Source: an uncultured Actinomycetota bacterium (lineage in GTDB: Bacteria; Actinomycetota; Actinomycetes; JAHEKZ01). From it: a stretch of 64,000 nucleotides of DNA. The stretch lies in assembly GCA_963718235.1 (NCBI GenBank), contig CAVQYR010000001.1:896001-960000 (forward strand), given 5' to 3'. The first letter of the stretch is position 1; the number at the start of each line of letters is the position of its first letter. Shown piece after piece: positions 5,395 through 39,102 of this stretch. Below the pieces are notes generated by a model. The model was not told the origin of the DNA, did not search any database, and was given only the letters and a program-made list of their open reading frames with translations. A program made the translations under genes and the position numbers.

Positions 5395-5449
5395 GTCGTC
5401 CCCAGGGCCGGTTGCCTCCGCCACGCCCACGCGGGTCGGCGGCCACGGT
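5395..5449 (+). promoter_or_regulatory. DnaA-box-like motif GTCGTCCCCAG (5395-5405) plus -10 CACGGT (5444-5449) of comF
   Basis: 9-mer core ends 39 nt before the -10; ATG 6 nt after the -10 (leaderless pattern); same geometry at tadA. Confidence 0.5.
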
Positions 5450-5455
5450 GCTGCG

Positions 5456-6190
5456 ATGGCGGCGACCAGCGGGTGGGTCGAGCGGGCCTGGGCCGGGTTC
5501 GCCGACCTCGTGCTCGGTCTGGAGTGTGCCGGGTGCGGTCGACCGGGATCCGGCTGGTGCGGCGCCTGTGACCGAGCGCTGCAGGGCCCGCTGGTGCCCG
5601 GTCCCTCGCGGTCGGTGGGGGTCCCCGTGGTGGCGTGCGCGCCGTACGACGGGGCGGTGCGGGCTGCGCTGATCGCGCACAAGGAGCAGGGCCGCCTCGC
5701 CCTGGTCCGCCCGCTGGGTGACGCGCTCGCCCGCGCGGTCCGGGGCCTCGACCTGCCGGGTCCGGTGCTGCTGGTGCCCGTCCCGTCGTCGCCCGCGGTC
5801 GTACGACGACGCGGGCACGACCATGCGCTCCGGCTCGCTCGTCGGGCCGGCCGGGTCCTGGGCGAGGGCGGGGTCCGCGTCCCCGTCGCGGCGTGGCTGC
5901 GCAGCCAGGGCTCGGTCCGCGACCAGGTCGGTCTCGACGTCGCCCAGCGCCGGGTCAACAAGGAGTCGACGACCCTGGTGCGTGGCGTCGTCGGGGGAGG
6001 AGGTCGGCTCCCGGTGGTCGTCGTCGACGACATCGTGACGACCGGTGCCAGCCTGGCAGCGTCCGTCGGTCGGCTGCGGGCCTTCGGTGTCGTCGTCGTG
6101 GGGGCCGCAACGGTGGCCGCCGTCGAGCGTCGCAGGACCGCCCACCACCCGAACCGCGGTGTCGAGCCGGCCGGTCCTCCGATAGCGTGA
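5456..6190 (+). CDS. comF: ComF family (double zinc ribbon plus phosphoribosyltransferase)
   Basis: CAGC..WCGAC, RRRGHDH, VVVVDDIVTTGASL; located between lpqB and hpf. Confidence 0.9.
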   Translation: MAATSGWVERAWAGFADLVLGLECAGCGRPGSGWCGACDRALQGPLVPGPSRSVGVPVVACAPYDGAVRAALIAHKEQGRLALVRPLGDALARAVRGLDLPGPVLLVPVPSSPAVVRRRGHDHALRLARRAGRVLGEGGVRVPVAAWLRSQGSVRDQVGLDVAQRRVNKESTTLVRGVVGGGGRLPVVVVDDIVTTGASLAASVGRLRAFGVVVVGAATVAAVERRRTAHHPNRGVEPAGPPIA

Positions 6191-6196
6191 GGACAT

Positions 6197-6471
6197 GGCA
6201 CCCGCCCGGGTCCGTGGTTGCGTCATCGATGTCTCTCGCACGCCTCGGCGTGCGCTGCGACGTCGTGACAAGCCGATGCCAGTCGCAGGCGAAACGGCCC
6301 ACGTAAGGCGACTTCTCGTCGTCCGATCACGGTGCGGCTTAGGAGTAAGTCCTGCCCTGCCGGTCGCCCAGATGGCGACCGACCCAGGAGAAGGGGAGTA
6401 GTGGCCACGAGGCTGCGAGACCCTCGGCAGGCGAATGTGGGGTCGAAGACCAGGTCGGCCGGGCGGGTGCC
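6197..6471 (+). ncRNA. raiA motif RNA
   Basis: Conserved blocks GTGGTTG, AAGCCGATGCCAGTCGCAGGCGAAAC, CCACGTAAG, GGTGCGGCTTAGGAGTAAGTCCTGCC, AGTAGTG, GCAGGCGAATGTGGGGTCGAAGACCAGGTC; 13-bp closing stem 6197-6209/6459-6471; comF-raiA context; -10 TAGCGT at 6183. Confidence 0.92.
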
Positions 6472-6508
6472 GCCCGCAGTGCCGCACGTCGAGTGGGGAG
6501 GACCATTC

Positions 6509-7150
6509 ATGGACATCGTCGTCAGAGGACGTCACACCGACGTCTCGGACCGGTTCCGTGAGCACGCCGCCAGCAAGCTGGCCAAGGTCGAGCGCTACGA
6601 CAGCAAGTGCCATCGGGTGGACGTCGAGGTGTCGGCCGAGAGCAACCCGCGACTCGCCGACCAGTCGGTGCGGGTCGAGATCACCTGTCATGGGAAAGGT
6701 CCGGTCATCCGCGGGGAGGCCTCGGCGGCCGAGAAGTACGTCGCCCTCGACCTGGCCTACGCCCGGCTCGAGGAGCGGCTGCGGCGGGCCGCCGACAAGC
6801 GCGCCGACCACGGACGCCGCCAGGCCCGCGCCTCCGAGCGGCAGGGGGCCGCGCCGGCGACCGGCCGGGGGGCGAACGGCGCGGTCGCGCCGAGCGAGGA
6901 GACGATGACGGCGGTGGTCACGGCGACCACCGTGGCGGGCATCGAGGTGCACGGCGACGGCCCGCTGGTCGTCCGCGAGAAGGTGCACGCCACCACCCCG
7001 ATGACGCTGGACCAGGCCCTGTACGAGATGGAGCTGCTCGGCCACGACTTCTTCCTCTTCGTGGACCAGGCGTCCGGCCGGCCGAGCGTGGTCTACCGCC
7101 GCAAGGGGTATGACTACGGAGTGATCCACCTCGACGTCGAGCCGGGTTGA
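6509..7150 (+). CDS. hpf: Ribosome hibernation factor HPF/RaiA (long form)
   Basis: MDIVVRGRH..., C-terminal MTLDQALYEMELLGHDFFLF...VVYRRKGYDYGVI; RBS GGAGG. Confidence 0.95.
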   Translation: MDIVVRGRHTDVSDRFREHAASKLAKVERYDSKCHRVDVEVSAESNPRLADQSVRVEITCHGKGPVIRGEASAAEKYVALDLAYARLEERLRRAADKRADHGRRQARASERQGAAPATGRGANGAVAPSEETMTAVVTATTVAGIEVHGDGPLVVREKVHATTPMTLDQALYEMELLGHDFFLFVDQASGRPSVVYRRKGYDYGVIHLDVEPG

Positions 7151-7218
7151 GCCGATCGGGTGGTGTGAACCCGTCCGAACCCTGACCCTTTCGGGCCGGG
7201 GCGTGGCACCATGATCAG

Positions 7219-7920
7219 GTGACCGAGGTCCCCGAGGACGCCAGCGTCCCGTTGAGCGAGCCGATCCGAGTGCTCGTCGTCGACGACCACGCCCTCTTCC
7301 GGCGCGGGCTGGAGATCGTGCTGGTCCAGGAGCCCGACATCGACGTCGTGGGCGAGGCGAGCGACGGCGAGGAAGCGGTGTCCGTGGCCGCGGACCTCCT
7401 GCCCGACATCGTGCTGATGGACATCCGGATGCCCAAGGGGTCCGGCATCGACGCCTGCACGGCGATCAAGGACCTCGTCCCGAGCGCGCGGATCGTCATG
7501 CTCACCATGAGCGACGAGGAGGCCGACCTCTACGAGGCGATCAAGGCCGGGGCGTCGGGGTACCTGCTCAAGGAGATCCCGATCGACGAGGTCGCTGCCG
7601 CGATCCGGGCGGTCCACACCGGCCAGTCGCTGATCAGTCCGGCGATGGCCGGCAAGCTGCTCACCGAGTTCGCCTCGATGATGCGCGAGCCGGTCGACCA
7701 GCCTCGGTCGTTGGCGGCCCCGCGGCTCACCGACCGTGAGCTGCAGGTGCTCAAGCTCGTGGCGCGCGGCATGAACAACCGCGACATCGCCAAGGAGCTG
7801 TTCATCTCCGAGAACACGGTGAAGAACCACATCCGCAACATCCTGGAGAAGCTGCAGCTGCACTCCCGGATGGAGGCCGTGGTCTACGCCGTCCGCGAGA
7901 AGCTGCTCGAGATCACCTGA
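7219..7920 (+). CDS. NarL/LuxR-family response regulator (orphan)
   Basis: VVDDH..MDIRMP receiver; LTDRELQVL..ISENTVKNHIRNILEKL HTH. Confidence 0.93.
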   Translation: MTEVPEDASVPLSEPIRVLVVDDHALFRRGLEIVLVQEPDIDVVGEASDGEEAVSVAADLLPDIVLMDIRMPKGSGIDACTAIKDLVPSARIVMLTMSDEEADLYEAIKAGASGYLLKEIPIDEVAAAIRAVHTGQSLISPAMAGKLLTEFASMMREPVDQPRSLAAPRLTDRELQVLKLVARGMNNRDIAKELFISENTVKNHIRNILEKLQLHSRMEAVVYAVREKLLEIT

Positions 7921-7923
7921 CGC

Positions 7924-9141
7924 GTGGCCCGCGAGCAGCTCAGCCTGGCCCAGGCCCGGCGGGTGGCCCTGGCCGCCCAGGGGTTCGGCGACGCCCGCTT
8001 CGCCGACCGCTCCAGGACCCCTGACCTTCGGACGCTCAAGCGCGTCGTCGCCCGCACCGGGCTCCTGCAGATCGACTCGGTCAACGTGCTGGTGCGGGCG
8101 CACTACCTGCCGGTGTTCAGCCGGGTCGGGCCCTACCCCCGTGAGCTGGTCGAGCGGGCGGCCTACCGCCGGCCACGGGCGCTGTTCGAGTACTGGGGTC
8201 ACGAGGCGAGCCTGCTGCCGGTAGCGGTGCAGCCGCTGTTCCGCTGGCGGATGGCCGAGGCGATGGACCATGCCTGGGGCGGCATGCGACGGGTCGCTCA
8301 GGAGCGCCCCGAGCTGCTGGGTGCGCTGGTGGCCGACGTGGCCGCCGAGGGGCCCCTGACGGCCTCCGAGCTGGCCGCCCGCCACGACAGGGACCGGCCC
8401 CGGCGCACCGGACCCTGGTGGGACTGGTCGGACGTGAAGCGGTCGCTGGAGTTCCTGTTCTGGTCCGGGCAGGTCACCACGGCCACCCGGAGGGGCTTCG
8501 AGCGGGCCTACGACCTGCCCGAGCGGGTGCTGCCGCGGGAGGTGCTCGACACCCCCACGCCGTCCCGGGAGGACGCCCAGCGCGAGCTGCTGCGGCGGTC
8601 GATCCGCTCGCTGGGAGTCGCGGCGGCCCGCGACCTGCGTGACTACTACCGGCTGCCCGCCGCCGATGCCAAGACGCGGATCGCCGAGCTCGTCGAGTCC
8701 GGCGAGCTCGCACCGGTCTCGGTCGAGGGTTGGCGGCAGCCCGGCTACCTCGACCCGTCGGCCCGGGTGCCCCGTCAGGTGTCGGCGAGCGCCCTGCTCG
8801 TTCCCTTCGACCCGCTGGTCTGGGAGCGCGACCGTACCGAGCGGCTGTTCGGCTTCCGCTACCGGATCGAGATCTACGTGCCGGCCTCCGCGCGGGTGCA
8901 CGGCTACTACGTGCTGCCCTTCCTGCTCGACGAGGCGCTGGTGGCCCGGGTCGACCTCAAGGCCGACCGGACGGCCGGGGTCCTGCGGGTGCAGGGCGCG
9001 TTCGCCGAGCCGGGCGCCCCGGCGGAGACCGCCGAGCGGCTGGGCCGCGAGCTCGCATCGATGGCCGAGTGGCTCGACCTGTCCGGCGTCGAGGTCATCC
9101 CCAACGGAGACCTCGCCCGCCCGCTCGCCGCTGCCGTCTGA
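7924..9141 (+). CDS. YcaQ/AlkZ-family (HTH_42) crosslink-repair DNA glycosylase
   Basis: LQIDSVNVL QxD motif, FEYWGHEA, PFDPLVWER..RLFGFRYRIEIYVP..GYYVLP. Confidence 0.9.
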   Translation: MAREQLSLAQARRVALAAQGFGDARFADRSRTPDLRTLKRVVARTGLLQIDSVNVLVRAHYLPVFSRVGPYPRELVERAAYRRPRALFEYWGHEASLLPVAVQPLFRWRMAEAMDHAWGGMRRVAQERPELLGALVADVAAEGPLTASELAARHDRDRPRRTGPWWDWSDVKRSLEFLFWSGQVTTATRRGFERAYDLPERVLPREVLDTPTPSREDAQRELLRRSIRSLGVAAARDLRDYYRLPAADAKTRIAELVESGELAPVSVEGWRQPGYLDPSARVPRQVSASALLVPFDPLVWERDRTERLFGFRYRIEIYVPASARVHGYYVLPFLLDEALVARVDLKADRTAGVLRVQGAFAEPGAPAETAERLGRELASMAEWLDLSGVEVIPNGDLARPLAAAV

Positions 9142-9170
9142 GGGCGCGCGGAGCGACCCGACCGGGCCGG

Positions 9171-10292
9171 TCAGTCGCTGGCCAGCCGCGCGTGCAGGTG
9201 CTCGTCGTGCAGCTGGCCGTCTCCGTAGCGGTAGGCCTGGCGCAGCGTGCCCTCCAGGGCGAACCCGGCCCGTTGGGCGACCCGGCACGACGCCGGGTTC
9301 TCCACGGCGTGCAGCAGGCGGATCCGCTGCAGGGGCAGCGTGGCGAACGCCCACTCGGTGACCGCCCGCACGCCCTCGGTGGCCAGTCCGCGGCCCCGCT
9401 CCTGCGGGAGGACGCCGTAGCCGATCTCGGCCGTGGCGTTCTGGGCGTCCAGGGAGTGCAGTCCGATCCCGCCCAGCAGCCGGCCGTCGTCGGGGTCGGC
9501 GATCGCCCACGCCGCGGCCCGACCGTCGGACCACCGGGTGCGCCGGCGCACGAGCTCGGCGGCGTCGGCGAGGTCGACGATGTCCTCCGGGTCCCAGGCC
9601 GACACGACCGGGTCGGTGGAGTAGGCGAGCACGGCCGGGGCGTCGGTCGGGCGGTAGGCCCGCAGGAGCAGTCGCTTCGTCCGCAGCTGGACCGGCTCAG
9701 CCGGCCAGCCGGGCAGCAGCCAGGACGCGCGGGGTGCTCCGGCCTTCGTCCGGGCCAGGTCGGCGGGCAGCAACGACCCGAGCCACCCGTCGACCCGGGT
9801 GCCCCGATGCACGAGCCCCAGGCGCAGGGTCCCCTCGACCACGAAGCCGACGGCCTCGGCCACCTGACGGCTCGCCACGTTGCCGACCTCGGCCTGCCAC
9901 ACGATCCGTGGCACGCCCTGGTCGAACAGCCAGCGGCACAGCGCTCGGGTCGCCCGGGTCGCCACTCCGCGGCCCCGGGCGCGGGGGGCGACCCAGTAGC
10001 CGATCTCGGTTCCGCTCTCCTCGTGGACGTCGACCACGCCGAACGAGCCCAGCAGCTGTCCGGTGGCGCCATCGACGCCGGCGAACGACGGCAGCCCGGC
10101 CGCCCACCGCTCGCTGCTGCTGCTCACGAACCCGTCGGCGTCACTCGTGGTGTAGGGCACCGGAACGCGGGTCCAGCGCTGGATCTGCGGGTCCTGGCAC
10201 GCCTCGAGCACGGCGCCGGCGTCCTCGGCCGCCCAGGGCCGGAGCATCAGGTCGCCGTCGTGCAGCGTCGTGGGGGTGGTCAGCTCGGGCAT
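9171..10292 (-). CDS. Tandem two-domain RimJ/RimL GNAT acetyltransferase
   Basis: Two EIGY..RGRG.AT / N.AS..VA...GF..EGTLR repeats; start MPELTT. Confidence 0.88.
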   Translation of the reverse strand: MPELTTPTTLHDGDLMLRPWAAEDAGAVLEACQDPQIQRWTRVPVPYTTSDADGFVSSSSERWAAGLPSFAGVDGATGQLLGSFGVVDVHEESGTEIGYWVAPRARGRGVATRATRALCRWLFDQGVPRIVWQAEVGNVASRQVAEAVGFVVEGTLRLGLVHRGTRVDGWLGSLLPADLARTKAGAPRASWLLPGWPAEPVQLRTKRLLLRAYRPTDAPAVLAYSTDPVVSAWDPEDIVDLADAAELVRRRTRWSDGRAAAWAIADPDDGRLLGGIGLHSLDAQNATAEIGYGVLPQERGRGLATEGVRAVTEWAFATLPLQRIRLLHAVENPASCRVAQRAGFALEGTLRQAYRYGDGQLHDEHLHARLASD

Positions 10293-10843
10293 CGGGCTCC
10301 GATCCAGGCGTCGATGGCCACCAGCTGGTCGGGGTGGTCGGGGTCGTGCCGCTGCAGCCGCTGGCGCAAGGTGGCCTCGAGGGCGAACCCGGCGCGTTCG
10401 GCCACGGCCCTGCTGGCGTCGTTGCCGACGACCGCCTGCCACTCGATCCGCTGCAGCCCCTGGACGCCGAACCCGAAGGCGCACACCAGCTCCACGGCGT
10501 CGGTCATGATGCCTCGGCCGCGAGCCTGCGGGGCCAGCCAGAACCCGACCTCGGCCACGCCGGCCAGGCGGGGGTGCAGGCCGATCGTGCCGAGGAAGCT
10601 GCCGGTCTCGCGGTCGGTGATCACCCAGACCAGGTCCTCCCCGGAGGCCCAGCCGGGCTCGACCAGCGAGGTGACGAACCAGCGAGCGTCGTCCAGGGTG
10701 TAGGGCGAGGGGATCGCGGCGATCCACCGCGGGATCTCCGGGTCCTGGCAGGCGGCAGTGATCGCGTCGACGTCGTCCAGGGTCGGCGGGCGCAGCAGCA
10801 GCCGCTCGTCGGAGAGCTCGGTGCGCGCTGGGGTCGCCGTCAT
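10280..10843 (-). CDS. RimJ/RimL GNAT acetyltransferase
   Basis: EVGFWLAPQARGRG, GNDASRAVAERAGF. Confidence 0.88.
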   Translation of the reverse strand: MTATPARTELSDERLLLRPPTLDDVDAITAACQDPEIPRWIAAIPSPYTLDDARWFVTSLVEPGWASGEDLVWVITDRETGSFLGTIGLHPRLAGVAEVGFWLAPQARGRGIMTDAVELVCAFGFGVQGLQRIEWQAVVGNDASRAVAERAGFALEATLRQRLQRHDPDHPDQLVAIDAWIGARCPS

Positions 10844-10982
10844 GCGACCTCATCCTGCCGGTGGACCGGTCCAGGTCACCAACTGATTACGATGTGGTCA
10901 CACGGCGTCCGACGCCGTCGCGGCCATGGGCCCGGGTCGAGTACCGGGAGTCCGCCGCCTGTGCACCCGACGGAGACGAAGC

Positions 10983-13778
<2,796 letters not shown>

Positions 13779-13788
13779 GCCCGCCGGG

Positions 13789-14382
13789 TCAGCCGAACAC
13801 GACGGCGGTGCACACCCAGCGGCCGCGGAGTCCTTCCAGCCGCAGGGCCACCGCGCGTGGGCGCTCGCTACCGGCCACCACCAGGGCCACCTCGGCGATC
13901 CCGTCGGCCGGCTCGCAGACGTGTACCGAGCGCACCGACTCCCGGCGCACGCCGGGGCCGACCCGGTGCTGCGCGAGCTCGGCGTAGACGGAGGCTGAGG
14001 TCCACCTCAGCAGCTGGGTCACCGGTCGGCTCCCGCTACGCACCTCCAGCAGGGCCTGCCCCAGCCGGGCGGCCCACATCCGCGGGTCGGTCAGCTGCGC
14101 CCGGGCGGTGTGGTCCGGCGGCTCGTCGTCGGTGTCGGTCGGCTCCCAGGCCCGCCGGGGCGCCGGGGCCAACGCGAGGTCGGGGGCGGCCGGCTCGGCG
14201 GGCAGCCCCCCGGGCAGCACGTAGGCCAGGGCGAGGGTGCCCTGGACGGCGGCAGCCACCGGCCGACCGCTGCGTCGAGGCGACTGGCCGGGCGGCTCCC
14301 AGGAGGGGGCGGGGACCACCCGTAGCCGACGGGCGGGGACGTCCGGGGGGCCGGCGGGAGGGACAGGTGAGGTCGGGGGCAT
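13789..14382 (-). CDS. Rv3235-family (DUF6459) protein
   Basis: LLEVRSGSRPVTQLLRWTS..VRSVHVCEPADGIAEV..RAVALRLEG..GRWVCT; convergent with secA; RBS GAGGAG. Confidence 0.85.
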   Translation of the reverse strand: MPPTSPVPPAGPPDVPARRLRVVPAPSWEPPGQSPRRSGRPVAAAVQGTLALAYVLPGGLPAEPAAPDLALAPAPRRAWEPTDTDDEPPDHTARAQLTDPRMWAARLGQALLEVRSGSRPVTQLLRWTSASVYAELAQHRVGPGVRRESVRSVHVCEPADGIAEVALVVAGSERPRAVALRLEGLRGRWVCTAVVFG

Positions 14383-14425
14383 CGGGACTCCTCGCGGTGA
14401 GTCGGTGGCCTCGATGGGTCATGTG

Positions 14426-14476
14426 CTTACGTTTGCCTCGGTTAACCTGAGTTAATCATGCGTTTGGTCGTGCTTG
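14426..14476. repeat. 10-bp-phased GTT(A/T) direct-repeat array, AT-rich
   Basis: GTTtgcctcg GTTaacctga GTTaatcatg cGTTtggtcgt GCTtg; GTT at 14431, 14441, 14451, 14462. Confidence 0.55.
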
Positions 14477-14479
14477 GGC

Positions 14480-14533
14480 ATTGTGCGCCGGACCGAGCGG
14501 GCGGGCAAGCGGTACGCCCGACCTGGGGACAAC
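14480..14533 (-). promoter_or_regulatory. DnaA-box-like GTTGTCCCCAG plus -35 TTGCCC / -10 CACAAT promoter of the Rv3235-family gene
   Basis: Box 14523-14533 (minus), -35 at 14503-14508, 17-nt spacer, -10 at 14480-14485. Confidence 0.55.
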
Positions 14534-14582
14534 CCTCGAACCGGGCCCGCCGGGCCCGACCGTTCGGTTAGCGTCCCCGGCC

Positions 14583-15167
14583 ATGGCCGAGTCCCGCGGA
14601 GAACGTCCGGACCCCCTGCGGGGGTGGGTCGACGACGACCTGGCCGACCGGCTCGCCGGGGTGGAGCGGGTCGACCTCGACCGCACCGCCGCCGACCTGG
14701 CGGTCGCGGAGTGGGCCGCCGTCGCCTGGGCCGACCGGGCCGGCCCAGCCGGCACGGGCCGGCCGTGCGTCGTCCGGGTCACGGTCGCGGGCGCAGACGA
14801 GCCACTGGTCGGCACCGTCGTCGACCGGGGCCAGGGGTGGTTGCTGCTGGCGTCACCGCACGGCGAGGTGGTCGTGTCGACCCGGGCCGTCCTGGGCGTC
14901 CAGGGGCTGCCGCGTCGGGCCGTCGAGGGGCACTCGGTGTCGTTGCGGTCACGCGGGATCGGTGTGGCCCTGCGGGCGCTGGCCGCGCGCGGGCTCCCGG
15001 TGACCGTGGCCCGGCTCGACGGCACCCGGCTGCAGGGGACGGTGCGCAACGTGGGGGGCGATGCCCTCGACCTGCTGGAGCACCCGACCGACCGGGCGCC
15101 GAGGGGCGCGGACCCGGTGACGACGCTGCCGTTCGCGGCGCTGGCGACGGTGCGGGCCGAGGGGTAG
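14583..15167 (+). CDS. Conserved actinobacterial hypothetical protein (two SH3/Sm-like beta modules)
   Basis: Two GTV..VG.(D/G)W/A-LL repeats; -10 TAGCGT at 14569; usual neighbour of the HTH-SAF-ATPase block. Confidence 0.75.
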   Translation: MAESRGERPDPLRGWVDDDLADRLAGVERVDLDRTAADLAVAEWAAVAWADRAGPAGTGRPCVVRVTVAGADEPLVGTVVDRGQGWLLLASPHGEVVVSTRAVLGVQGLPRRAVEGHSVSLRSRGIGVALRALAARGLPVTVARLDGTRLQGTVRNVGGDALDLLEHPTDRAPRGADPVTTLPFAALATVRAEG

Positions 15168-15175
15168 GTCGGGAG

Positions 15176-15409
15176 TCAGCCGAGGGGTGGGGCCTCCCGG
15201 GCGAACGGGTGCTCGGCCACGAACTGCGCGGTCTGCTCGTAGCTGGCGGCGATGAACCGGTCGAGCTCGGCCACCTCGACCCGCCACTGTCCACGGCCGC
15301 CGATCTTGATCGCGCGCAGGTCGCCGTTGCGGACCAACGCGTACGTCTGGGACGCCGAGATGCTCAGCACCTCCGCGACGTCGGCCAGGGTGAGGAACCG
15401 GCGCTCCAC
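15176..15409 (-). CDS. Excisionase/BldC-like HTH_17 DNA-binding protein
   Basis: FLTLADVAEVLSIS..YALVRNGDLRAIKIGGRGQWRV; RBS AAGGAGG. Confidence 0.9.
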   Translation of the reverse strand: MERRFLTLADVAEVLSISASQTYALVRNGDLRAIKIGGRGQWRVEVAELDRFIAASYEQTAQFVAEHPFAREAPPLG

Positions 15410-15481
15410 GGGCCCTCCTTCGACGGCTCAGGGTGATCGTGCCGCCTCGGACGGTACTCGTGCGTCGGCCGCCCGAAGGAC

Positions 15482-15492
15482 CTGTGGACGAA
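15482..15492 (-). promoter_or_regulatory. DnaA-box-like TTCGTCCACAG in the divergent HTH/SAF intergenic region
   Basis: Core 41 nt upstream of minus-strand CACGAT (15436-15441); plus-strand -10 CACCAT at 15520 for the SAF gene. Confidence 0.45.
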
Positions 15493-15531
15493 GAACGACC
15501 CCGGTGTCGCGGGGTCGGGCACCATCCCGGC

Positions 15532-16164
15532 ATGGCTGTCACCGGTGTGCCGAAGGCCGTGCGCCTGCCGACCCCCTCGCTGGTCGACGCCCGCACGCTC
15601 GTGGGGCTGCTGCTCGTGGTCGGGTCCGTGCTCGGGGTCGGGTGGGTCGTCGCCACCGCCGACGACGACGTTGCGGTCTGGGCGCTGCGGTCCGACCTCG
15701 CTGCGGGGGCCACCGTCGCAGCCGACGACGTCGCGCTCACCCGGGTCCGGCTGGGCAGTGAACCGCTCGCCTACCTGGGCGAGTCGGCCGACCCGGTGGG
15801 GCAGGTCGTGGTGCGCGACGTCGCCTCCGGTGAGCTCCTGGCCGCGTCCGCCGTACGCGCGGCCGACGCCGTGGACCGGCGGCTCGTCACCGTGCCCGTG
15901 GCGCGCTACCACCTCGCCGCCGACCTGCGGCGGGGGGAGCGGGTCGACGTCTACGTCGTCGAGCGCGGAGCCACCGGGGAACCGGTCGGCGAGCCACGGC
16001 TGGTGCTGGGCGAGGTCACCGTCGAGGCCGTCGACGACGGCGGCTCGCGGCTGGGTGGTTCGAGCCTGGAGACGGGGGTCGTCCTGTCGGTGTCCCCCGA
16101 CGACGTCACCTCGCTGGTGGGCGCGTCGGCCGGCGGGGCGCTCACCCTGGTCCGGGTCCCCTGA
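15532..16164 (+). CDS. SAF-domain protein, CpaB/RcpC-like pilus assembly component
   Basis: N-terminal TM, SAF-like DLAAGATVAADDV..RDVASGELL, RcpC-like LRRGERVDVY. Confidence 0.78.
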   Translation: MAVTGVPKAVRLPTPSLVDARTLVGLLLVVGSVLGVGWVVATADDDVAVWALRSDLAAGATVAADDVALTRVRLGSEPLAYLGESADPVGQVVVRDVASGELLAASAVRAADAVDRRLVTVPVARYHLAADLRRGERVDVYVVERGATGEPVGEPRLVLGEVTVEAVDDGGSRLGGSSLETGVVLSVSPDDVTSLVGASAGGALTLVRVP

Positions 16165-16166
16165 CC

Positions 16167-17456
16167 GTGGGCGCGCGGGTGCTGCTGGCCGTGTCCGACC
16201 GCCGACAGGAGGCCGACCTGATCGCGGCCCTGCGGGGATCGCCCGGTGGGGCGGAGCTCAGCCGGCGCTGCGTCGACCTCGCCGACGTGCTGGCCGCCGC
16301 CTCCACCGGCTGCGCAGACGTGGCGCTGCTGTCGGCGTCCCTGCGCCGGCTGGACCGGGACGCCGTGGCCATGTTGCGTCGCCAGGGGGTCGAGGTCGTG
16401 GTGGTGACCGCCGACCGGGGCGACGCCGACTCGGACGCGCCAGCCGACCCCTGGGCGGCCTGGGGGGTCCGGGCCGTGGTCGGTCCGGACCCGCAGGACG
16501 TGCTGCGCGCGGTACTTGCCGGGCCGGCGTCCAGCGGGCCGCGCACCGAGCCGCGCGGGACGACCGGGCACCTCGTCGCGGTGTGGGGCCCGACCGGGGC
16601 GCCGGGCCGCACCACGGTCGCGGTGACCGTGGCCGACGAGCTGGCCCGGCTCGGCCACGACACCCTGCTCGCCGACGCCGACACCTACGGCGCCAGCGTC
16701 GCCCAGGTGCTGGGTCTGCTCGACGACACGTCGGGCCTGGCGTCAGTGACCCGGCTGGCGGCCACCGGCCGGCTCGACCCGGCCGCGTGTGCGCGGGCGA
16801 CGGTCGCCCTGCCGTCCGGGGTGCACGTGCTGACCGGCGTGGCCCGCCCGGACCGGTGGGTCGAGCTGCGCGGTGACTCCTTGCAGGCCGTGTGGTCGTG
16901 GGCCGGTTCCACCTACGCGTTCGTCGTGCTCGACTGCGCGTTCGGGCTGGGCGGCGGCCTCGCCGGGTCCTGGCCGTCCGAGGTGGGCCCGCCCGACCGG
17001 GACGAGGCCACGCTCGCGTCCCTCGCCGTGGCCGACACCGTGCTCGCCGTCGGCTCGGCCGACCCGGTCGGCCTGGTCCGGCTGGCCCGGGACCTTCCCG
17101 CCGTGGTCGAGCGGGCCCCCGCAGCCCAGGTGCGGGTCGTGGTCACCCGGTGTCGCCGGGGCGCCGTCGGTGGCGACCCGCGGCGCGCGGTGCCGGCCGT
17201 CGTGGCGCCGGTCCTGGCCGACCTGGCGATGCGGCACGGCGGGCGGGTCTGCACTGACGTCCACCTCGTCCCTGACGGGCGCGCCGAGCTCGACAGCGCG
17301 CTCCTGTCCGGTCGGACGCTGGGCGAGTCGGCGCCGGGCTCGACCGCTCACCAGGCGCTGCTGGCGCTCGCCGAGAGCGTCGTCGACCAGTCGTCGGGTA
17401 CCCCGGCGTCGACGACGACGAGACGCTCGCGCCGTCGCTTGCGCCGCACGGGCTGA
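16167..17456 (+). CDS. CpaE/TadZ/MinD-like ATPase with N-terminal receiver-like domain
   Basis: Deviant Walker A VWGPTGAPGRTT, LADADTYG, VVLDCAF. Confidence 0.82.
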   Translation: MGARVLLAVSDRRQEADLIAALRGSPGGAELSRRCVDLADVLAAASTGCADVALLSASLRRLDRDAVAMLRRQGVEVVVVTADRGDADSDAPADPWAAWGVRAVVGPDPQDVLRAVLAGPASSGPRTEPRGTTGHLVAVWGPTGAPGRTTVAVTVADELARLGHDTLLADADTYGASVAQVLGLLDDTSGLASVTRLAATGRLDPAACARATVALPSGVHVLTGVARPDRWVELRGDSLQAVWSWAGSTYAFVVLDCAFGLGGGLAGSWPSEVGPPDRDEATLASLAVADTVLAVGSADPVGLVRLARDLPAVVERAPAAQVRVVVTRCRRGAVGGDPRRAVPAVVAPVLADLAMRHGGRVCTDVHLVPDGRAELDSALLSGRTLGESAPGSTAHQALLALAESVVDQSSGTPASTTTRRSRRRLRRTG

Positions 17457-17475
17457 GGCCACCGTCTCGGCGACC

Positions 17476-19152: not shown

Positions 19153-19208
19153 GCCACGACCCTAAAGGCGCCGCCGAGGGGTGGCTCGCCGGCTCCTAGG
19201 ATCGCGGG

Positions 19209-25246: not shown

Positions 25247-25251
25247 GAAGC

Positions 25252-25279
25252 GGTGCCGCCCCTCCCGACGGGAGGCACC
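25252..25279 (+). terminator. GC-rich hairpin after the PPOX gene
   Basis: GGTG..CCTCCC-GAC-GGGAGGCACC inverted repeat. Confidence 0.35.
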
Positions 25280-25389
25280 CGAGCGGCGTAATCGGGGGAC
25301 CGGACGGTGGGGTCCGCCCCCGTGGTCGGCCCGCCAACCGGTAGCCTCATACTCCGGCCAAGCAGGGCATGGACGGGAGCGCAGGTTCG

Positions 25390-30249: not shown

Positions 30250-30287
30250 CCGGGGCTCCACGGGCCGGGATGGGCCAGGATGGGCCC

Positions 30288-31487: not shown

Positions 31488-31514
31488 TGGCCGCTGCGGC
31501 GCCGGCTGGTCGAG

Positions 31515-32159
31515 CTACTGGCGACTTACCGTCGTGAGCCCGGCGTCGGCGCGCAGGGCGGTGAGCAGGCGGTCGTGCCGTCCGTGCTGCAAGTCGCCGA
31601 TCGGGTCGTCGGTGTAGCGGGCGAGCACGTCCAGCGGCAGGCTGAACGCGGCGCGCATGGCGAGCAGCCGCTGCCGCTCAGGGTCGCCGTCGTCGAACAG
31701 CATCCGCTCGCCGAGCTCGGCGGTGCGCACCTGCCGGACCCGCTTCGGCAGGTAGGAGACCAGCAGCACCGCGGCCGGGAGCAGGAAGACCAGCCAGCCT
31801 GCGAGGAGCGCCACCCGGTGGATCGCCTGCTCACCCTGCTCCCCCAGTGAGACGACGTTCCCCCCGGTGGCGTCACTGGCACTGGTCAGCGCATCACTCA
31901 GTGCGCCACCGATGACCGGGACGCCGTCGACTGCGTCGGCCACCGAGGAGAACCCGCCCTGGACCGACTGGCCGGCGTCTTGGACCCCCAGGGCCAGCGA
32001 CGTCACCGCGTCGACCCGCTCGTAGACCCGCCAGCCGAGCCAGCCGAACAGCAGCAGCATGGCCAGGGTCAGCAGGTCAGCCACCAGCGCGGCCCGACGT
32101 CGGCTGGGAGAGCCCGGGTACAGGCGCGCGTAGATCGAACTGGCCGAATTCACGGTCAT
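31515..32159 (-). CDS. Conserved membrane protein
   Basis: Two TM helices flanking a VPVIGGALSDAL segment; RBS GGAG. Confidence 0.7.
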   Translation of the reverse strand: MTVNSASSIYARLYPGSPSRRRAALVADLLTLAMLLLFGWLGWRVYERVDAVTSLALGVQDAGQSVQGGFSSVADAVDGVPVIGGALSDALTSASDATGGNVVSLGEQGEQAIHRVALLAGWLVFLLPAAVLLVSYLPKRVRQVRTAELGERMLFDDGDPERQRLLAMRAAFSLPLDVLARYTDDPIGDLQHGRHDRLLTALRADAGLTTVSRQ

Positions 32160-32187
32160 CACCACTCCCTGGGCGTCACACTGAGTC

Positions 32188-33081
32188 ATGCCGAGACATC
32201 AGACTGCAGCCTTGCAGGTACTGCGCCGAGCAGACGTACCGTTGCAGGAGACCTCGGGGCTGTGTCTGCGTCGTGAGGCCGACGGATCGACCACGCTGCT
32301 CGCGATCGGTGACCGCGAGGCCACGATCGCGTGGTGCCGACTCCCGCACGACGTCGACGGTGAGCTGACCTGGGCGACCGCGGACCTCACCGGGGCCGAC
32401 GGGACCGCCCTGCCGGCGCACGATCCGCAGCTGGAGGCGATTGCGTCCGACGGTGTCGGTCGGGTGCTGCTGCTCCAGGAGACCCCACCGCGGTGCGAGC
32501 TGATCGACCCACCGAGCGTCGCAGTCATCGCCCGGATCGCACTGAGCGTCGAGGGAGAGAGCGCTGTCGCCCGCTCGTGGCGCGACCCGGCCGGGTCGCA
32601 CGGCGAGGGGTGCATCCTGCTGCGGGACGGTCATCTCCTGGTCGCCAAGGAGAAGGACCCCTCGGCGATCGTTGAGTTCGGACCGGCCGGCGCCGAGGCG
32701 ATCGGGGTCGGCGCCGGGACCGTGCTGCCGCCAGGACAGACGTGGGAGGTGGGCACCGGTGACCTCACCTACGTCGCCCTCGCCACCTGGCTGCCCGATG
32801 ACGGGCTGGCCAAGGCCTGCGGCGACCTGTCTGACCTGCAGGTCGGCCCGGACGGGCACCTCTACGTGCTCAGCGACCAGTCGGCGTCGATCGCCCGGCT
32901 CGACGAGCTGCCCGCCACGGGCGGCGTGGCCCGGGCGTCGTCGGTGTGGAGCCTGGACGGCGTCGACGGAAAGCCGGAGGGTCTGGCCTTCCTGCCCAGC
33001 GGCTTCGCGGTGGTCGCACTGGACACGCGCAAGGCCAAGCACAACCTGCTGCTGATGGGGCCGGCGATCGCCGCGACCTGA
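32188..33081 (+). CDS. Hypothetical beta-propeller protein (SdiA-regulated/YjiK-like)
   Basis: Blade-like motifs ETSGL, QLEAI, HGEG, DLSDL, KPEGLAF; start uncertain. Confidence 0.6.
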   Translation: MPRHQTAALQVLRRADVPLQETSGLCLRREADGSTTLLAIGDREATIAWCRLPHDVDGELTWATADLTGADGTALPAHDPQLEAIASDGVGRVLLLQETPPRCELIDPPSVAVIARIALSVEGESAVARSWRDPAGSHGEGCILLRDGHLLVAKEKDPSAIVEFGPAGAEAIGVGAGTVLPPGQTWEVGTGDLTYVALATWLPDDGLAKACGDLSDLQVGPDGHLYVLSDQSASIARLDELPATGGVARASSVWSLDGVDGKPEGLAFLPSGFAVVALDTRKAKHNLLLMGPAIAAT

Positions 33082-33103
33082 CCGGTGGTCCCAGCCCGTC
33101 GGG

Positions 33104-34954
<1,851 letters not shown>

Positions 34955-35001
34955 GGCCGCGCTCTGGTGCCCTGGGCCCGACGCTTGGCTCACGGGCGGG
35001 C

Positions 35002-36417
35002 TCACCTCGGCAGCCACGGGTCGTGCCAGCGGCCGAACCCGGTGACGAGCCGATCGGCCTCGGCGGGCCCCCAGCTCCCCGGGGCGTAGGGAAGCACGGG
35101 TGGTGGGTCGTCGAGCAGTGGCTGCATGATCCGCCAGGCCTCCTCGACCCCGTCCTGGCGGGTGAAACGCACGGTCTGACCCTCGAGTGCGGCCAGCAGG
35201 AGCACCTCGTAGGGCGTCGCTCCCTCACCGCCCTCGTCGCCGAACTCCATGTCCAAGAAGATGGTCTCCGGCCCGGGCGCATCCGCGCGGCGGGCGTCGA
35301 CCAGCCACTGCACACCGATCCGCGGGTCCATCCGGATCACGAGCTGGTTCGGCTCGGGGCGGCGGTCGCCGACGAGGCCGAACCCGAGCTTGGGCGGGCG
35401 CTTGAACACCATGCGAACCTCGGTCTGGGTGAGCGGGAGGTGCTTGCCGGTCCGGATGAAGAACGGCACGCCCGACCAGCGCCAGTTGTCGACGTCGAGC
35501 CGCAGTGCGGCGTACGTCTCGGTGGTCGAGCCCGCTGCGACGCCCGGGGTGTCGAGGTAGCCGGCGTACTGCCCCCGCACGTAGGACCTGGGGTCGCCGT
35601 CCTCGATCGCTCGGAAGACCGCGACCGAGGAGTCCTTCAGCGTGTTGGGGTCGCCACCGGAAGGCGCCTCCATGGCCACGGCTGCCACCACCTGCATGAG
35701 GTGGTTGACGACCACGTCGCGCAGCGCCCCCACTGGGTCGTAGAAGTGCCCCCGGTCCTCGACCCCGAAACTCTCGGCCATGGTGATCTGCACCGACTCC
35801 ACGAAGTTCCGGTTCCACACCGGCTCGAGCATCGTGTTGGCGAACCGGAGGAACAGCAGCTCCTCCAGGCCCATCTTTCCTAGGAAGTGGTCGATCCGCA
35901 GCAGCTGCGACTCGTCGATGTGGCGGTGCATGGCCCGCGCAAGCTCGCCGGCCGACCCGCGGTCGTGGCCGAAGGGCTTCTCCACGACGACCCGGGCATT
36001 GGGCGTCATGCCGGCACGGCTGATGCCCCGGACGACGGTCTCGAAGAGCGAGGGGGGTATCTCCAGGTAGAAGACGGGGAGCGATCTTCCCCTGATCTGC
36101 TCGGCCACCTTGTCGTAGGTGGTGTCGTCGGCGAAGTCACCGGACACGTAGGACAGCCGGGCAGCCAGCCGTGCGAACACCGTCTCGTCGAGCTCCTCGC
36201 CGGTGCCGACGATGCAGTCACGGGCGTGGGCACGAAGCTGGTCGACGGTCCAGTCGTTCACGGCGACACCCACGATGGGAGTGCGGAGCAGCCCCCGTTG
36301 CTCCAGGCGGTAGAGCGACCGGAAGGTCATCACCCGGGCCAGGTCCCCGGTGATGCCGAAGATGACCAGGACGTCGGCTGGTGGGGCAACGGAGGTGGGT
36401 GTCGCCTGCGGATTCAC
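35002..36417 (-). CDS. zwf: Glucose-6-phosphate 1-dehydrogenase
   Basis: [33 protein letters not shown]. Confidence 0.95.
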
Positions 36418-36638
36418 TCGGCCGTCCCTTCGGTTCGGGTGAGGTCCTCAGCCTAGTTGCGGGCTCGTGGAGTGCTTGCCGCGCTGAGCGCGGCGTCACG
36501 ACCATCAGGCGTGCTCGGTCGGGTCACGGCGCGATGCTACGGGTGCGCCGCCGGACCCCCTCTGCCAGAGTGGGCTGGTCAGGCAGGTGCGGGTGCTTCT
36601 CACCGGCCGAGTCGTCAGCCAAGTGCTCAGGAGGAACA

Positions 36639-36833
36639 GTGGTTCTGGGAATCGGTGGATTTAGCGGGGGCAAGGCCGGCGGTCCGGCGTACGAGATCGA
36701 GGTGAACGAGGGCTCGGTGAACATGCACCGCTTCACCAAGGTCGCGAACGAGCGGGCGGCCAACGGATACCGGATGGCGCACGTGTACAGCCAGGACCGC
36801 AACACGATCGTGGTCTGGGAGCGCGTCGGCTGA
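36639..36833 (+). CDS. Small 64-aa protein (DUF4177-like)
   Basis: RBS GGAGG then GTG; ..NERAANGYRMAHV..IVVWER. Confidence 0.65.
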   Translation: MVLGIGGFSGGKAGGPAYEIEVNEGSVNMHRFTKVANERAANGYRMAHVYSQDRNTIVVWERVG

Positions 36834-36897
36834 CCGCGCTGCCGCCGGTCGGCGGGAGAGCGTCGGGCGGCCTTGCCGTCTGGGCTAGCGTGCGGCC

Positions 36898-37854
36898 ATG
36901 AGCGCTCCTCCTGAGTCGTACTTCGACACCTCGGGTTGGGACCCACGTGACGTCGTCTCGGGCGGCTCGCGGATGGTGCCGGTCAGCACGCCGAGCGGTG
37001 ACTTCCGGGTGTGGACCAAGCGGGTCGGCACCAACCCCGACCTCAAGGTGCTGCTGCTGCACGGGGGCCCGGGGGCGACAGACGAGCTGTACGAGTGCTT
37101 CGACACCTGGTTCCCCGGCGCCGGCATCGAGTACTACTACTACGACCAGCTCGGCTCGTTCCGCAGCGACCAGCCCGACGACCCGTCGCTGTGGGACCTG
37201 GCCCGGTTCGTCGACGAGGTCGAGCAGGTCCGCCGAGCGCTCGGGCTGGACGCGGGCAACTTCGTGCTGCTCGGCCAGTCGTGGGGTGGGATCCTCGCCA
37301 TGGAGTACGCCGTCCACCACCAGGAGCACCTCAAGGGCCTGGTCATCTCGAACATGATGTCGAGCGCGCCGCTGTACAACGCCTATGCCCACGAAGTCCT
37401 CATGCCCGCCATGGACCAGTTCGTCCTCGCGCAGATCAAGCAGTTCGAGGCCGAGGGGACCACCGACGACCCCCGCTACGAGCAGCTGCTCATGGAGCAC
37501 CACTACGCCTTGCACGTCTGTCGGCTCCCGCTCGGGGAGTGGCCCGACCCGGTCCAGCGCTCTCTGGGCCACCTCAACCCGGCGATCTACGTACCGATGC
37601 AGGGGCCGAGCGAGCTCGGTCTCAGCGGCACCCTCGAGGACTGGGACCGCTCCGGAGACCTCGGGGACATCGACGTCCCGACCCTCGTCATCGGTGCCAC
37701 TCACGACACCATGGACCCCGAACACCTGCGTTGGATGGCTGACCAGCTGCCCCAGGGCACCTACCTGCACTGCCCCGAGGGAAGCCACCTGGCGCAGTTC
37801 GACGACCCGCAGCACTACTTTCCCGGGCTGATCCGTTTCCTCCAGTGTCTGTGA
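36898..37854 (+). CDS. Proline iminopeptidase-family hydrolase
   Basis: LHGGPG, YDQLG, GQSWGG, GSHLA. Confidence 0.92.
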   Translation: MSAPPESYFDTSGWDPRDVVSGGSRMVPVSTPSGDFRVWTKRVGTNPDLKVLLLHGGPGATDELYECFDTWFPGAGIEYYYYDQLGSFRSDQPDDPSLWDLARFVDEVEQVRRALGLDAGNFVLLGQSWGGILAMEYAVHHQEHLKGLVISNMMSSAPLYNAYAHEVLMPAMDQFVLAQIKQFEAEGTTDDPRYEQLLMEHHYALHVCRLPLGEWPDPVQRSLGHLNPAIYVPMQGPSELGLSGTLEDWDRSGDLGDIDVPTLVIGATHDTMDPEHLRWMADQLPQGTYLHCPEGSHLAQFDDPQHYFPGLIRFLQCL

Positions 37855-37965
37855 GTCACCGACCTCGGCCGCGGGTCATCCGGCCCGACCTGGTCCTCGC
37901 CGGGGCGAGGGCTGCTCGACCGAACGTGGGCTCGGGCGCCAGGCGGTGCTGCGTAGGGTGTCGCC

Positions 37966-38505
37966 ATGGAGACAGCGTGGTTGTTCGACACACTTGCGGT
38001 GACCCTCGCGCGGATCGACTTCCTCGACCCTGAACTGGACGCGGCGCCGGACACCAGGGAGCGCGGCGTGCGTCTAGAGATCCGTCCGATCGAGTCTGAG
38101 TGCGTCGGCAGCGTCTACGCTTCGCCCACCGTCACGCTTCAACCGGCCGTCTGCCGCATCGACCTGTTGGAGTCTGCCCCTGGCGCCGTTGACCGGATGC
38201 ATTGGCACCCCACCATGCACGGTGGTGAGCCGGGCGATCGTACGTTCGACCCTGACATCCCGGTCGACCCGCTGGCGTGGCTCGACCGCCGCCTTGCGCA
38301 GGTCACGAAGCTCCTGGAGCACGGTGGCGTCGAAGACACTGGGCTCTATGAACGGTCCGCGGGCGAGATCTCGGATCATCGTGCCGAAATCGTTGCAGCG
38401 GCGGCTGCCGGCCTTGAGTGGGCCCGGCGCCCATGGCCTGATGTGGAGCATGACGAACGCGGCATGGCTACGCTCACGGAATGGCCGATGACACGTACAC
38501 AGTGA
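37966..38505 (+). CDS. Conserved hypothetical protein
   Basis: ERGVRLE..RIDLLES..DRMHWHP..DPLAWL; -10 TAGGGT at 37954. Confidence 0.7.
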   Translation: METAWLFDTLAVTLARIDFLDPELDAAPDTRERGVRLEIRPIESECVGSVYASPTVTLQPAVCRIDLLESAPGAVDRMHWHPTMHGGEPGDRTFDPDIPVDPLAWLDRRLAQVTKLLEHGGVEDTGLYERSAGEISDHRAEIVAAAAAGLEWARRPWPDVEHDERGMATLTEWPMTRTQ

Positions 38506-38957
38506 AGCGATCCATCACGATCGACGCTCCTGCGGCTCAGGTCTTCCCCCTCGTTGCCGACTTCAGGCGCTGGACGGAGTGGTCACCCTGGGAAGGCCTC
38601 GACCCCGACATGCAGCGGACCTACAGCGGGTCGGCGTCGGGGCCTGGGTCGTCCTACAGCTGGTCGGGCAACCGGAAAGCCGGGCAGGGTCAGATGACGA
38701 TTCTCGAGGCAGTGGAACCGTCAACGATCACCGTGGACCTCCGCTTCGACAGGCCGTTCAAGGCACGCAACGACATGTCCTTCCACATTCAGGAGCATGA
38801 GCGTGGTTCGACCGTTCGCTGGGCAATCACCGGCAAGAAGACGTTCGCCACGAGAGCCATGAGTCTCTTCAAGTCGATGGACGCGTTGGTCGGGCCCGAC
38901 TTCGAGAGAGGGCTGGCCAAGCTCAAGTCACTGGTCGAGGGACCTCCAGGGGCCTAG
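38481..38957 (+). CDS. SRPBCC/polyketide cyclase family protein
   Basis: RSITIDAP..WSPWEGLDP..YSWSGN..GPDFERGLAKLK. Confidence 0.9.
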   Translation: MADDTYTVKRSITIDAPAAQVFPLVADFRRWTEWSPWEGLDPDMQRTYSGSASGPGSSYSWSGNRKAGQGQMTILEAVEPSTITVDLRFDRPFKARNDMSFHIQEHERGSTVRWAITGKKTFATRAMSLFKSMDALVGPDFERGLAKLKSLVEGPPGA

Positions 38958-39047
38958 CGGTCACGGGCCGACACCCCGGGCTGCCCGCCCACAGTGGGTG
39001 ACGAACTGGGTGCGGGTCGTGAGTCGACGTGCGGCGGCCGGGTGAGG

Positions 39048-39102
39048 GTTGTCCACAGTTGGGCCGAACCCGTTGCCGCTCCCCGTCGTTGGCCCCTAAC
39101 CT
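39048..39102 (+). promoter_or_regulatory. Perfect actinobacterial DnaA-box TTGTCCACA plus -35 TTGCCG / -10 TAACCT upstream of tadA
   Basis: Box 39049-39057, -35 at 39073-39078, -10 at 39097-39102. Confidence 0.6.

Follow-up and report, generated by a model that had tools for sequence, protein, structure and literature searches.

The window analysed here is a stretch of 64,000 nucleotides (contig CAVQYR010000001.1, positions 896,001 to 960,000; G000:C1:896001-960000 in the coordinates used below) from the genome of an uncultured Actinomycetota bacterium, which comprises 3.17 Mb of DNA with 70% GC in two contigs, C1 and C2. The window contains exactly four matches to the 11-mer KTYGTCCMCAG, a word of the type of the DnaA box. 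They are positioned before a comF-like gene, an Rv3235-like gene, the gene of a small HTH_17 protein next to SAF and CpaE-like genes, and tadA, the first gene of a tad operon. An original prediction, made from the letters of the window, had placed these words at the same positions and strands and interpreted them as the shared operator of a DNA-uptake regulon; exact pattern matching recovers all four. Genes were called with our own rough codon-usage caller (2927 genes, ~88% coding), and gene families were assigned with Pfam and NCBIfam profiles. The boxes, the promoter elements proposed beside them, and the genes that they face are as follows.

5395-5405, + strand: DnaA-box-type word GTCGTCCCCAG, 5 nt past the stop codon of lpqB, ahead of the ComF-like gene
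5444-5449, + strand: proposed -10 CACGGT, 39 nt past the core and 6 nt before the ATG of the comF-like gene at 5456; its first base is non-canonical and the element is weak
5456-6190, + strand: ComF-like phosphoribosyltransferase-fold gene (TIGR00201 comF, E 1.6e-10, 182 of 190 profile positions)
13789-14382, - strand: Rv3235-like gene, DUF6459 (PF20060, E 9.4e-30)
14385-14478, - strand: six 10-bp units in head-to-tail order, lying between the proposed -10 and the DUF6459 ATG
14480-14508, - strand: proposed promoter of the Rv3235-like gene, with -35 TTGCC (14508-14504) and -10 CACAAT (14485-14480), read from the sequence
14523-14533, - strand: DnaA-box-type word GTTGTCCCCAG, before the Rv3235-like (DUF6459) gene
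15176-15409, - strand: gene of a 77-aa HTH_17 protein, an excisionase-family, BldC-like DNA-binding protein (PF12728, E 7.7e-13; TIGR01764)
15441-15436, - strand: proposed -10 CACGAT, 41 nt past the core at the HTH_17 gene
15482-15492, - strand: DnaA-box-type word TTCGTCCACAG, in the divergent region between the HTH_17 and SAF-CpaE genes, facing the HTH_17 gene
15532-16164, + strand: SAF/RcpC-CpaB gene, divergent from the HTH_17 gene (Pfam/NCBIfam)
16167-17456, + strand: CpaE/TadZ-like ParA-type ATPase gene (Pfam/NCBIfam)
39048-39058, + strand: consensus DnaA box GTTGTCCACAG, before tadA
39073-39102, + strand: predicted tadA promoter, with -35 TTGCCG (39073-39078) and -10 TAACCT (39097-39102), read from the sequence
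39145-43653, + strand: tad operon with tadA, tadB, tadC, a small possible pilin gene, and TadE/TadG-like genes (Pfam T2SSE, T2SSF twice, TadE, Tad)

All four boxes are single and, by the rough gene calls, non-genic. The distance from the core to a (C/T)AnnnT hexamer on the same strand is 39 nt at the comF-like gene, 38 nt at the DUF6459 gene, 41 nt at the HTH_17 gene, and 39 nt at tadA, and a TTGCC begins 15 nt past the core both at tadA (39073) and at the Rv3235-like gene (14508-14504), in agreement with the spacings given originally. The tadA site contains TTGTCCACA, the high-affinity DnaA box of Mycobacterium tuberculosis and Streptomyces coelicolor, the corresponding box of Escherichia coli and Bacillus subtilis being TTATCCACA (PMC4285127, Table 1; here and below, papers are cited for the parts of their text at hand). 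Relative to TTGTCCACA, the sites of the Rv3235-like gene (TTGTCCCCA) and the HTH_17 gene (TCGTCCACA) have one mismatch each and that of the comF-like gene (TCGTCCCCA) has two, and all four 9-mers are within the two mismatches from a high-affinity box that were taken as the limit for a DnaA box. In shuffled sequence the 11-mer pattern has a mean of 0.45 matches, and none of 100 shuffles reaches four, a statistic that is circular because the pattern was drawn from those same four sites.

A profile of the box was derived from the replication origins of related bacteria, using 157 TCC[AC]CA boxes from the dnaA-dnaN spacers of 27 relatives and excluding the genome under study. The profile reads G-T-T/C-G/A-TCC-A/C-CA-G-G/C, which is a KTYGTCCMCAG-type word, with the 5' G present in 83 and the 3' G in 98 of the 157 boxes. 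The two strongest boxes of the E. coli origin bear the same flanking G on both sides. When the 1882 TCC[AC]CA cores of the genome are scored with the origin profile, the four window sites rank 1 (tadA), 3 (Rv3235-like gene), 17 (comF-like gene), and 37 (HTH_17 gene), and they are the top four of the 46 cores within the window. The claim that the four promoters have a conserved operator-like word of the DnaA-box type in common is upheld. None of the seven top-scoring boxes in the genome falls within a called gene, and the origin itself contains one of the seven. The flanks of a separate set of 70 promoter boxes, picked solely by core and distance to TAnnnT with the flanks ignored, were compared with those of the origin boxes. 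The flank preferences of the two sets correlate with r = 0.88, as against 0.24 for genic background cores, indicating that DnaA is the most likely reader of the promoter word.

The distribution of the word over the genome depends on more than its core. Of the 35 KTYGTCCMCAG matches, 19 are non-genic, 15 genic, and one is at a gene edge, with non-genic DNA forming ~12% of the genome, and all six GTTGTCCMCAG matches are non-genic. The 3' G is associated with a non-genic location: T[CT][GAT]TCC[AC]CAG occurs at 23 non-genic, 37 genic, and two edge sites, and T[CT][GAT]TCC[AC]CA followed by another base at 22 non-genic, 104 genic, and one edge site. The intergenic fraction of the bare TCCACAG 7-mer is not unusual, as it was equalled or exceeded in 45 of 150 permutations. 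A TAnnnT hexamer is found 37-41 nt past eight of the 117 non-genic TCCMCAG sites, compared with one in the control direction and none at the 535 genic sites. The signal is in the flanks, the position, and the conservation of the word, not in its core. A de novo search for 8-mers enriched in non-genic DNA was swamped by words of genes missed by the caller and is not used as support; in its list only CGTCCACA ranked high, with 36 occurrences observed and 14 expected.

Conservation was assessed in 30 genomes of relatives from 13 families, 18 of them in the family of the window's own genome and 13 in one genus. Among them is an unpublished genome, G024, which forms one row in each count and on which alone no claim is based. 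A box was counted as conserved if a TCC[AC]CA core lay on the strand of the gene and no more than ~300 nt upstream. The motif had been expected to be kept upstream of orthologs, and it is found before tadA in 18 of 22 usable relatives, before the HTH_17 ortholog (forward core) in 20 of 23, and at the lpqB-comF junction in 20 of 23, where only the 3' part, TCC[AC]CAG, is retained and the boxes are therefore weaker. The forward core before the DUF6459 gene in 21 of 26 relatives upholds the proposal that the Rv3235 family belongs to the set. The tadA alignment has a constant order of blocks, in which the box is followed after ~15 nt by TTGAG or TTGCC and, 17-18 nt further, by TAnnnT. The distance from the box to TAnnnT is 38-40 nt in 17 of the 22 relatives, with no case on the control strand. 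Position three of the tadA box is G, A, or T among the relatives, so that the word stays between the TTGTCCACA and TTATCCACA forms. In a set of 79 usable named tadA loci from public genomes, the core is present in 42 and is positioned 38-41 nt (mostly 38-40 nt) before TAnnnT in 34, compared with three on the control strand.

The prediction that the box should also precede comEA/comEC and dprA agrees with what is found outside the window. In the genome under study, comEA is followed by comEC and then, probably, by holA, and GTTCTCCCCAG is located 39 nt before a TAGCGT hexamer, with the GTG start codon 7 nt further (G000:C1 1230286-1230302), so that the mRNA would be leaderless. The comEA(-comEC-holA) loci of 26 of 28 relatives contain the core, which lies 38-40 nt before TAnnnT in 22 of the 28 and in none on the control strand. 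By our reading of these loci, this geometry spans nine families. In the relatives, the comEA start codon is mostly 6-7 nt past the hexamer, which predicts leaderless mRNAs, and a second box usually lies ~25 nt further upstream. Among named, cultured organisms, the arrangement of box, 39 nt, TAnnnT, 6 nt, and ATG is present at comEA of Phycicoccus elongatus Lp2 and Frankia sp. QA3, and there is no clear geometry of box and -10 at comEA of Cellulomonas sp. URHD0024 and Nakamurella leprariae. In the genome under study, yraN has two boxes before it and is succeeded by a ComM-like Mg-chelatase gene and dprA. Forward boxes are present before yraN(-comM-dprA) in 28 of 30 relatives, typically at ~-76 and ~-102 from the start codon, and in several loci a CAnnnT can be seen by eye ~39 nt past the box. 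In further genomes of the same class, all seven yraN genes have boxes, five forward and two in reverse orientation only. As a control, a forward core was found within 260 nt upstream of yraN in only six of 33 genomes from other classes of the phylum, close to the ~11% expected from a site-density estimate. A 127-aa SSB paralog gene is preceded by a box in the genome under study. The element shared between uptake genes thus occurs there before tadA, comEA-comEC-holA, the comF-like gene, yraN-comM-dprA, and the SSB paralog gene, and in relatives before tadA, comEA, comF, and yraN.

The four window sites could in principle be a product of chance or of base composition, as the 11-mer pattern was written from the sites themselves and GC-rich words are common in a genome with 70% GC. 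This explanation is refuted by the conservation of the box across many families at the promoters of orthologs, the fixed geometry, the strand bias, and the control sets, and its probability is next to nil.

The word is not limited to uptake genes. Non-genic boxes in the genome under study also face dnaB (several boxes), gyrB, nrdR, murT, dtd, hutH, and a Wzz-type kinase gene, and boxes are present at the dnaA promoter and oriC. The gyrB box is positioned 37 nt before TAGGAT, and nrdR is preceded by an array of five boxes (G000:C1 ~2206.4 kb). At each of two DUF222-HNH endonuclease genes, TAGTGT or TAGAGT follows a box after 38-39 nt (G000:C2 153055-153125 and C2 696326-696400), and at both the hexamer is overlapped by the palindrome TCGAAC-N4-GTTCGA, which we take to be of the actinobacterial LexA type. 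Specificity of the word to uptake genes is not borne out, as it also stands before dnaB, gyrB, nrdR, murT, dtd, the two DUF222-HNH genes, and others. The idea of a regulon dedicated to DNA uptake is contradicted by the same box before dnaB, where it forms arrays, and at gyrB, nrdR, dnaA, and oriC. These additional targets include typical replication genes, as expected for DnaA. Three of the seven top-scoring boxes in the genome are unexplained (G000:C2 32886, C1 24822, and C2 904408); one of the three is flanked by the genes of a CLC channel and a DUF6941 protein, one by those of a Wzz-type kinase and a PqqD-like protein, and one is near the end of contig 2 in seemingly AT-richer sequence.

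Same-direction arrays with a spacing of 11-12 bp, about one helical turn, which are a known substrate for DnaA oligomers, are found at dnaB, nrdR, C1 517.2 kb, and C2 463.6 kb, in distinction to the single sites of the window. Upstream of dnaB, forward boxes are present in 27 of 29 loci (L307-L335), usually four to six within 260 nt and with pairs 11-12 bp apart; those of the genome under study are at G000:C1 ~220.8 kb. The dnaB cluster may act as a site of repression or as a store of DnaA. Outside the origin, further arrays of four to five boxes with 11-12 bp spacing are located at C1 517210-517276, C2 463568-463646, and C2 802670-802960 (before rpsB). The first two have no obvious adjoining promoter and could be datA- or DARS-like. 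It is conceivable that DnaA binds all of the boxes for titration or recharging, as in such sinks, and exerts no control over the adjoining promoters, a function that would suit the arrays of three to six boxes at C1 ~517.2 kb, C2 ~463.6 kb, and C2 802.7-802.95 kb, where there is no obvious promoter role, and before dnaB. However, titration requires neither a fixed distance of 38-40 nt nor a fixed orientation, which are nevertheless kept at tadA and comEA across many families, and single boxes are poor sinks. Titration as the sole function is accordingly rated as very improbable.

The favoured explanation is that the word g-T-T/C-G/A-T-C-C-A/C-C-A-G represents this clade's DnaA box and that DnaA is the predicted transcription factor acting from the upstream boxes, to which we assign a probability of about 0.6. 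That DnaA can act as a transcription factor is textbook knowledge. DnaA bound to the upstream boxes would control the genes for DNA uptake, namely the tad operon, comEA-comEC-holA, the comF-like gene, yraN-comM-dprA, and the SSB paralog gene, and alongside them the Rv3235-like gene and the gene of the HTH_17 regulator. The replication genes dnaB, gyrB, nrdR, and dnaA would be under its control as well. With the box 38-40 nt before the proposed -10 at tadA and comEA, the box centre is near -57, and the second comEA box is near -82. DnaA at about -57 may contact RNA polymerase, most simply as an activator. The fixed distance and orientation, at positions usual for contact with RNA polymerase, give a slight lean towards activation over repression. 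The uptake machine would in that case be expressed in step with the level of active DnaA and, through it, with the replication state. A plausible circuit is that DnaA sets the level of the uptake genes and the HTH_17 gene, with a further level of regulation contributed by the HTH_17 protein.

Several observations weigh against this explanation or reduce the strength of its support. All labels of "non-genic" depend on the rough codon-usage gene caller, and the kinship among the relatives, 13 of 30 of which belong to one genus, means that the counts overstate the independent support. The tadA box was found in none of the loci titled Frankia, Parafrankia, or Pseudofrankia. We infer from the sequence that the hexamers are real -10 elements, and a canonical TAnnnT is present at tadA and comEA; none is canonical at comF, yraN, DUF6459, or HTH_17, and among relatives a canonical TAnnnT at an offset of 37-41 nt occurs in 0 of 23, 0 of 29, 1 of 26, and 0 of 23 loci of these genes, respectively. 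In most relatives, the likely -10 of the HTH_17 gene is CAGACT, which precedes the start codon by 6 nt and lies ~70 nt past the box. A T-rich hexamer such as TTGGCT can be made out by eye ~37-38 nt past the DUF6459 box in genus g4. Since most actinobacterial promoters have no -35 element, its absence at comEA does not speak for activation. In Micrococcus luteus, comEA/EC is expressed under nutrient limitation (PMC12849477), which is also explicable by repression through abundant DnaA during fast growth. Furthermore, M. luteus genetics points to the HTH_17 protein, not DnaA, as the controller of comEA/EC (PMC8467076).

The HTH_17 protein encoded beside the SAF-CpaE genes could read the box itself and repress com, tad, and its own gene, in which case the likeness to the DnaA box would be a coincidence or reflect deliberate competition. 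The block at 15176-17456 is the same as Mlut_14660/14650/14640 (HTH_17/SAF/CpaE) of M. luteus (PMC8467076), and the link between this block and competence that had been proposed for the window is corroborated by the effects of the M. luteus locus on the promoter of comEA/EC and on transformation. In an M. luteus screen with ethyl methanesulfonate (EMS) for a de-repressed comEA/EC promoter, almost every mutant had a single-nucleotide polymorphism in the 550-bp region of Mlut_14660 (HTH_17) and Mlut_14650 (SAF), in or beside these genes and including three missense changes in the HTH_17 protein (PMC8467076). Mlut_14660 could not be deleted, and deletion of the SAF gene reduced transformation 10^4-fold (PMC8467076). 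The HTH_17 gene bears its own box in 20 of 23 relatives, as expected of an autoregulated factor. The binding of Mlut_14660 to the comEA/EC promoter was, however, left for verification in the sections of PMC8467076 at hand. The flank profile of the boxes is that of origin boxes, and the word also occurs at dnaB, gyrB, nrdR, and oriC. Neither a SAF-linked HTH_17 ortholog nor the SAF gene was found in the relatives G020 (100% complete), G030 (97%), G009 (91%), and G004 (97%), all of which keep the boxes at comEA and yraN. This retention of boxes is weak evidence in favour of DnaA, because other HTH_17 members are present in all four genomes and the region is perhaps unassembled in G004 and G009. 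On balance, the HTH_17 protein is considered an unlikely reader of the box. In relatives of other families (L264, L268, L269, and L270), the HTH_17/SAF divergent region contains two inverted boxes ~30 nt apart, one per gene; in the genome under study, only the box facing the HTH_17 gene is present.

Streptomyces BldC is a small HTH_17/MerR-like protein from the family of the 15176-15409 protein that forms head-to-tail multimers at -50 to -80 (PMC5859096). It protects this span of the whiI promoter and represses there, and the span fits the comEA boxes near -57 and -82. In contrast, the BldC consensus AATTxxxx(C) consists of contiguous AT-rich 9-bp direct repeats with an AT-rich minor groove, each repeat having a C-G pair 4 bp downstream of its AT tract (PMC5859096), whereas the box is rich in GC and mostly occurs singly or with ~25 nt to its neighbour. 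The identity of the box as a BldC-type operator was rejected on sequence, since there is no AT tract and there are no contiguous 9-bp repeats. The 10-bp units at 14385-14478 resemble a BldC site more than the box does. Relatives have three to four copies of these units in the clean form G[CT]AAAC-N4 before the DUF6459 gene (loci L039-L051 and L058), and no second triple of G[CT]AAAC-N4-type units was found anywhere in the genome under study. As speculation, the units may form an array of operators to which a protein binds head to tail, for instance the HTH_17 protein encoded nearby, which may act there as part of the circuit outlined above, or they may be an element of the 5' untranslated region.

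A combined arrangement would have the HTH_17 protein as a DnaA-box-binding antagonist that competes with DnaA at the promoters of the uptake genes and of its own gene, and perhaps also at the arrays of dnaB and the origin. The two proteins would then form one switch for replication initiation and natural competence in Actinomycetes. We regard this arrangement as distinctly unlikely.

The promoter word may instead be read by another factor of the class Actinomycetes, such as a response regulator or a polymerase-associated protein. The yraN arrangement is restricted to the class (28 of 30 relatives, plus five to seven of the seven further genomes, versus six of 33 in other classes), while DnaA is universal, and the 3' G is more common at promoter boxes (81%) than at origin boxes (62%). 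Nevertheless, no candidate gene co-occurs with the box, and the origin profile alone ranks the promoter sites best in the genome, so that a second protein is not needed. A reader of this kind is judged to be quite improbable. Among known regulators, the motifs of LexA, PafBC/RecA-NDp, CRP/GlxR, WhiA, and MraZ do not fit the word. Those of MtrA (GTCACAGCG) and AdpA (TGGCSNGWWY), as listed in PMC4285127, do not fit it either.

The remaining features of the window concern the neighbours of the genes discussed above.

3675-5390, + strand: lpqB, upstream of the comF-like gene
Downstream of the comF-like gene: hpf, a gene of a LuxR-type response regulator, and secA (10983-13778), in this order according to Pfam/NCBIfam
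14583-15167, + strand: open reading frame of 194 aa between the DUF6459 and HTH_17 genes

The name ComF for the gene at 5456-6190 is tentative, as its TIGR00201 score is 41 bits compared with a cut-off of 233, and the match to Pfam Pribosyltran is below the cut-off. Its mRNA is probably leaderless (5444-5458). The 194-aa reading frame has no Pfam or NCBIfam match, is divergent from the DUF6459 gene, and starts 51 nt from the box. The tad operon lies ~22 kb beyond the SAF/CpaE-like genes, and the reading frame of its possible pilin (42202-42387, 61 aa) matches no Pfam or NCBIfam family.

The observation behind the original prediction is confirmed, and its interpretation is partly supported. The predicted control by DnaA resembles known DnaA regulation, in which boxes lie near the promoters of dnaA and of replication and nucleotide genes, represented here by dnaA, dnaB, gyrB, and nrdR, and same-direction arrays are spaced by about one helical turn. 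It differs in that the targets include a whole set of uptake genes and that one position, 38-40 nt before the -10, is fixed across families. We know of no DnaA regulon with such uptake targets or such strict geometry. Literature searches brought up no paper in which DnaA boxes are connected with com or tad promoters, and going by them, a predicted fixed-position DnaA-box operator at the Tad, ComEA/ComEC, ComF-like, and YraN-ComM-DprA genes across Actinomycetes is new. Tad pili are reportedly used for DNA uptake in M. luteus. The parts at hand of the M. luteus papers PMC8467076 and PMC12849477 do not mention DnaA (0 occurrences in PMC8467076, which names no operator sequence for the locus), and the text of PMC8467076 and PMC6667448 gives no M. 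luteus promoter sequence.

Competence regulons with one common promoter element include those of the CRP-S/Sxy sites of Haemophilus and Vibrio, the ComK box, and the sigma-X cin-box. As in these, one short element serves the genes of the pilus, comEA/comEC, comF, dprA/comM, and ssb; in the present case, however, the element is the box of the initiator itself, it is also located at replication genes, and no dedicated competence factor was identified. Regulons of the one-element type are outlined in the introduction of PMC8467076. In the pneumococcus, replication state, including an over-supply of DnaA, is likewise tied to the induction of competence, but there arrested forks act on comCDE, and the parts of PMC8394987 at hand propose no DnaA boxes at uptake promoters. 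In Rhodoluna lacicola, tad genes, comEC, and dprA rise together in darkness (PMC8591293), which indicates that they can act as a unit in an actinobacterium.

The competence switch in Gram-positive bacteria with a high GC content is an open question, and according to an M. luteus paper of January 2026, the upstream signals and the regulatory cascade of competence "remain to be identified" (PMC12849477). The finding provides a conserved cis-element with a fixed promoter geometry that covers pilus, channel, and DNA-processing genes, together with two candidate readers, DnaA and the HTH_17 protein. If true, it would also give a regulatory context to the uncharacterised Rv3235/DUF6459 family. For this actinobacterium and many of its relatives, the conserved boxes suggest a coupling of DNA uptake to the replication machinery. 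If the boxes are read by DnaA, the initiator itself would tie uptake in a large class of bacteria to the replication state, in a parallel, by a different route, to the link between replication stress and competence in the pneumococcus.

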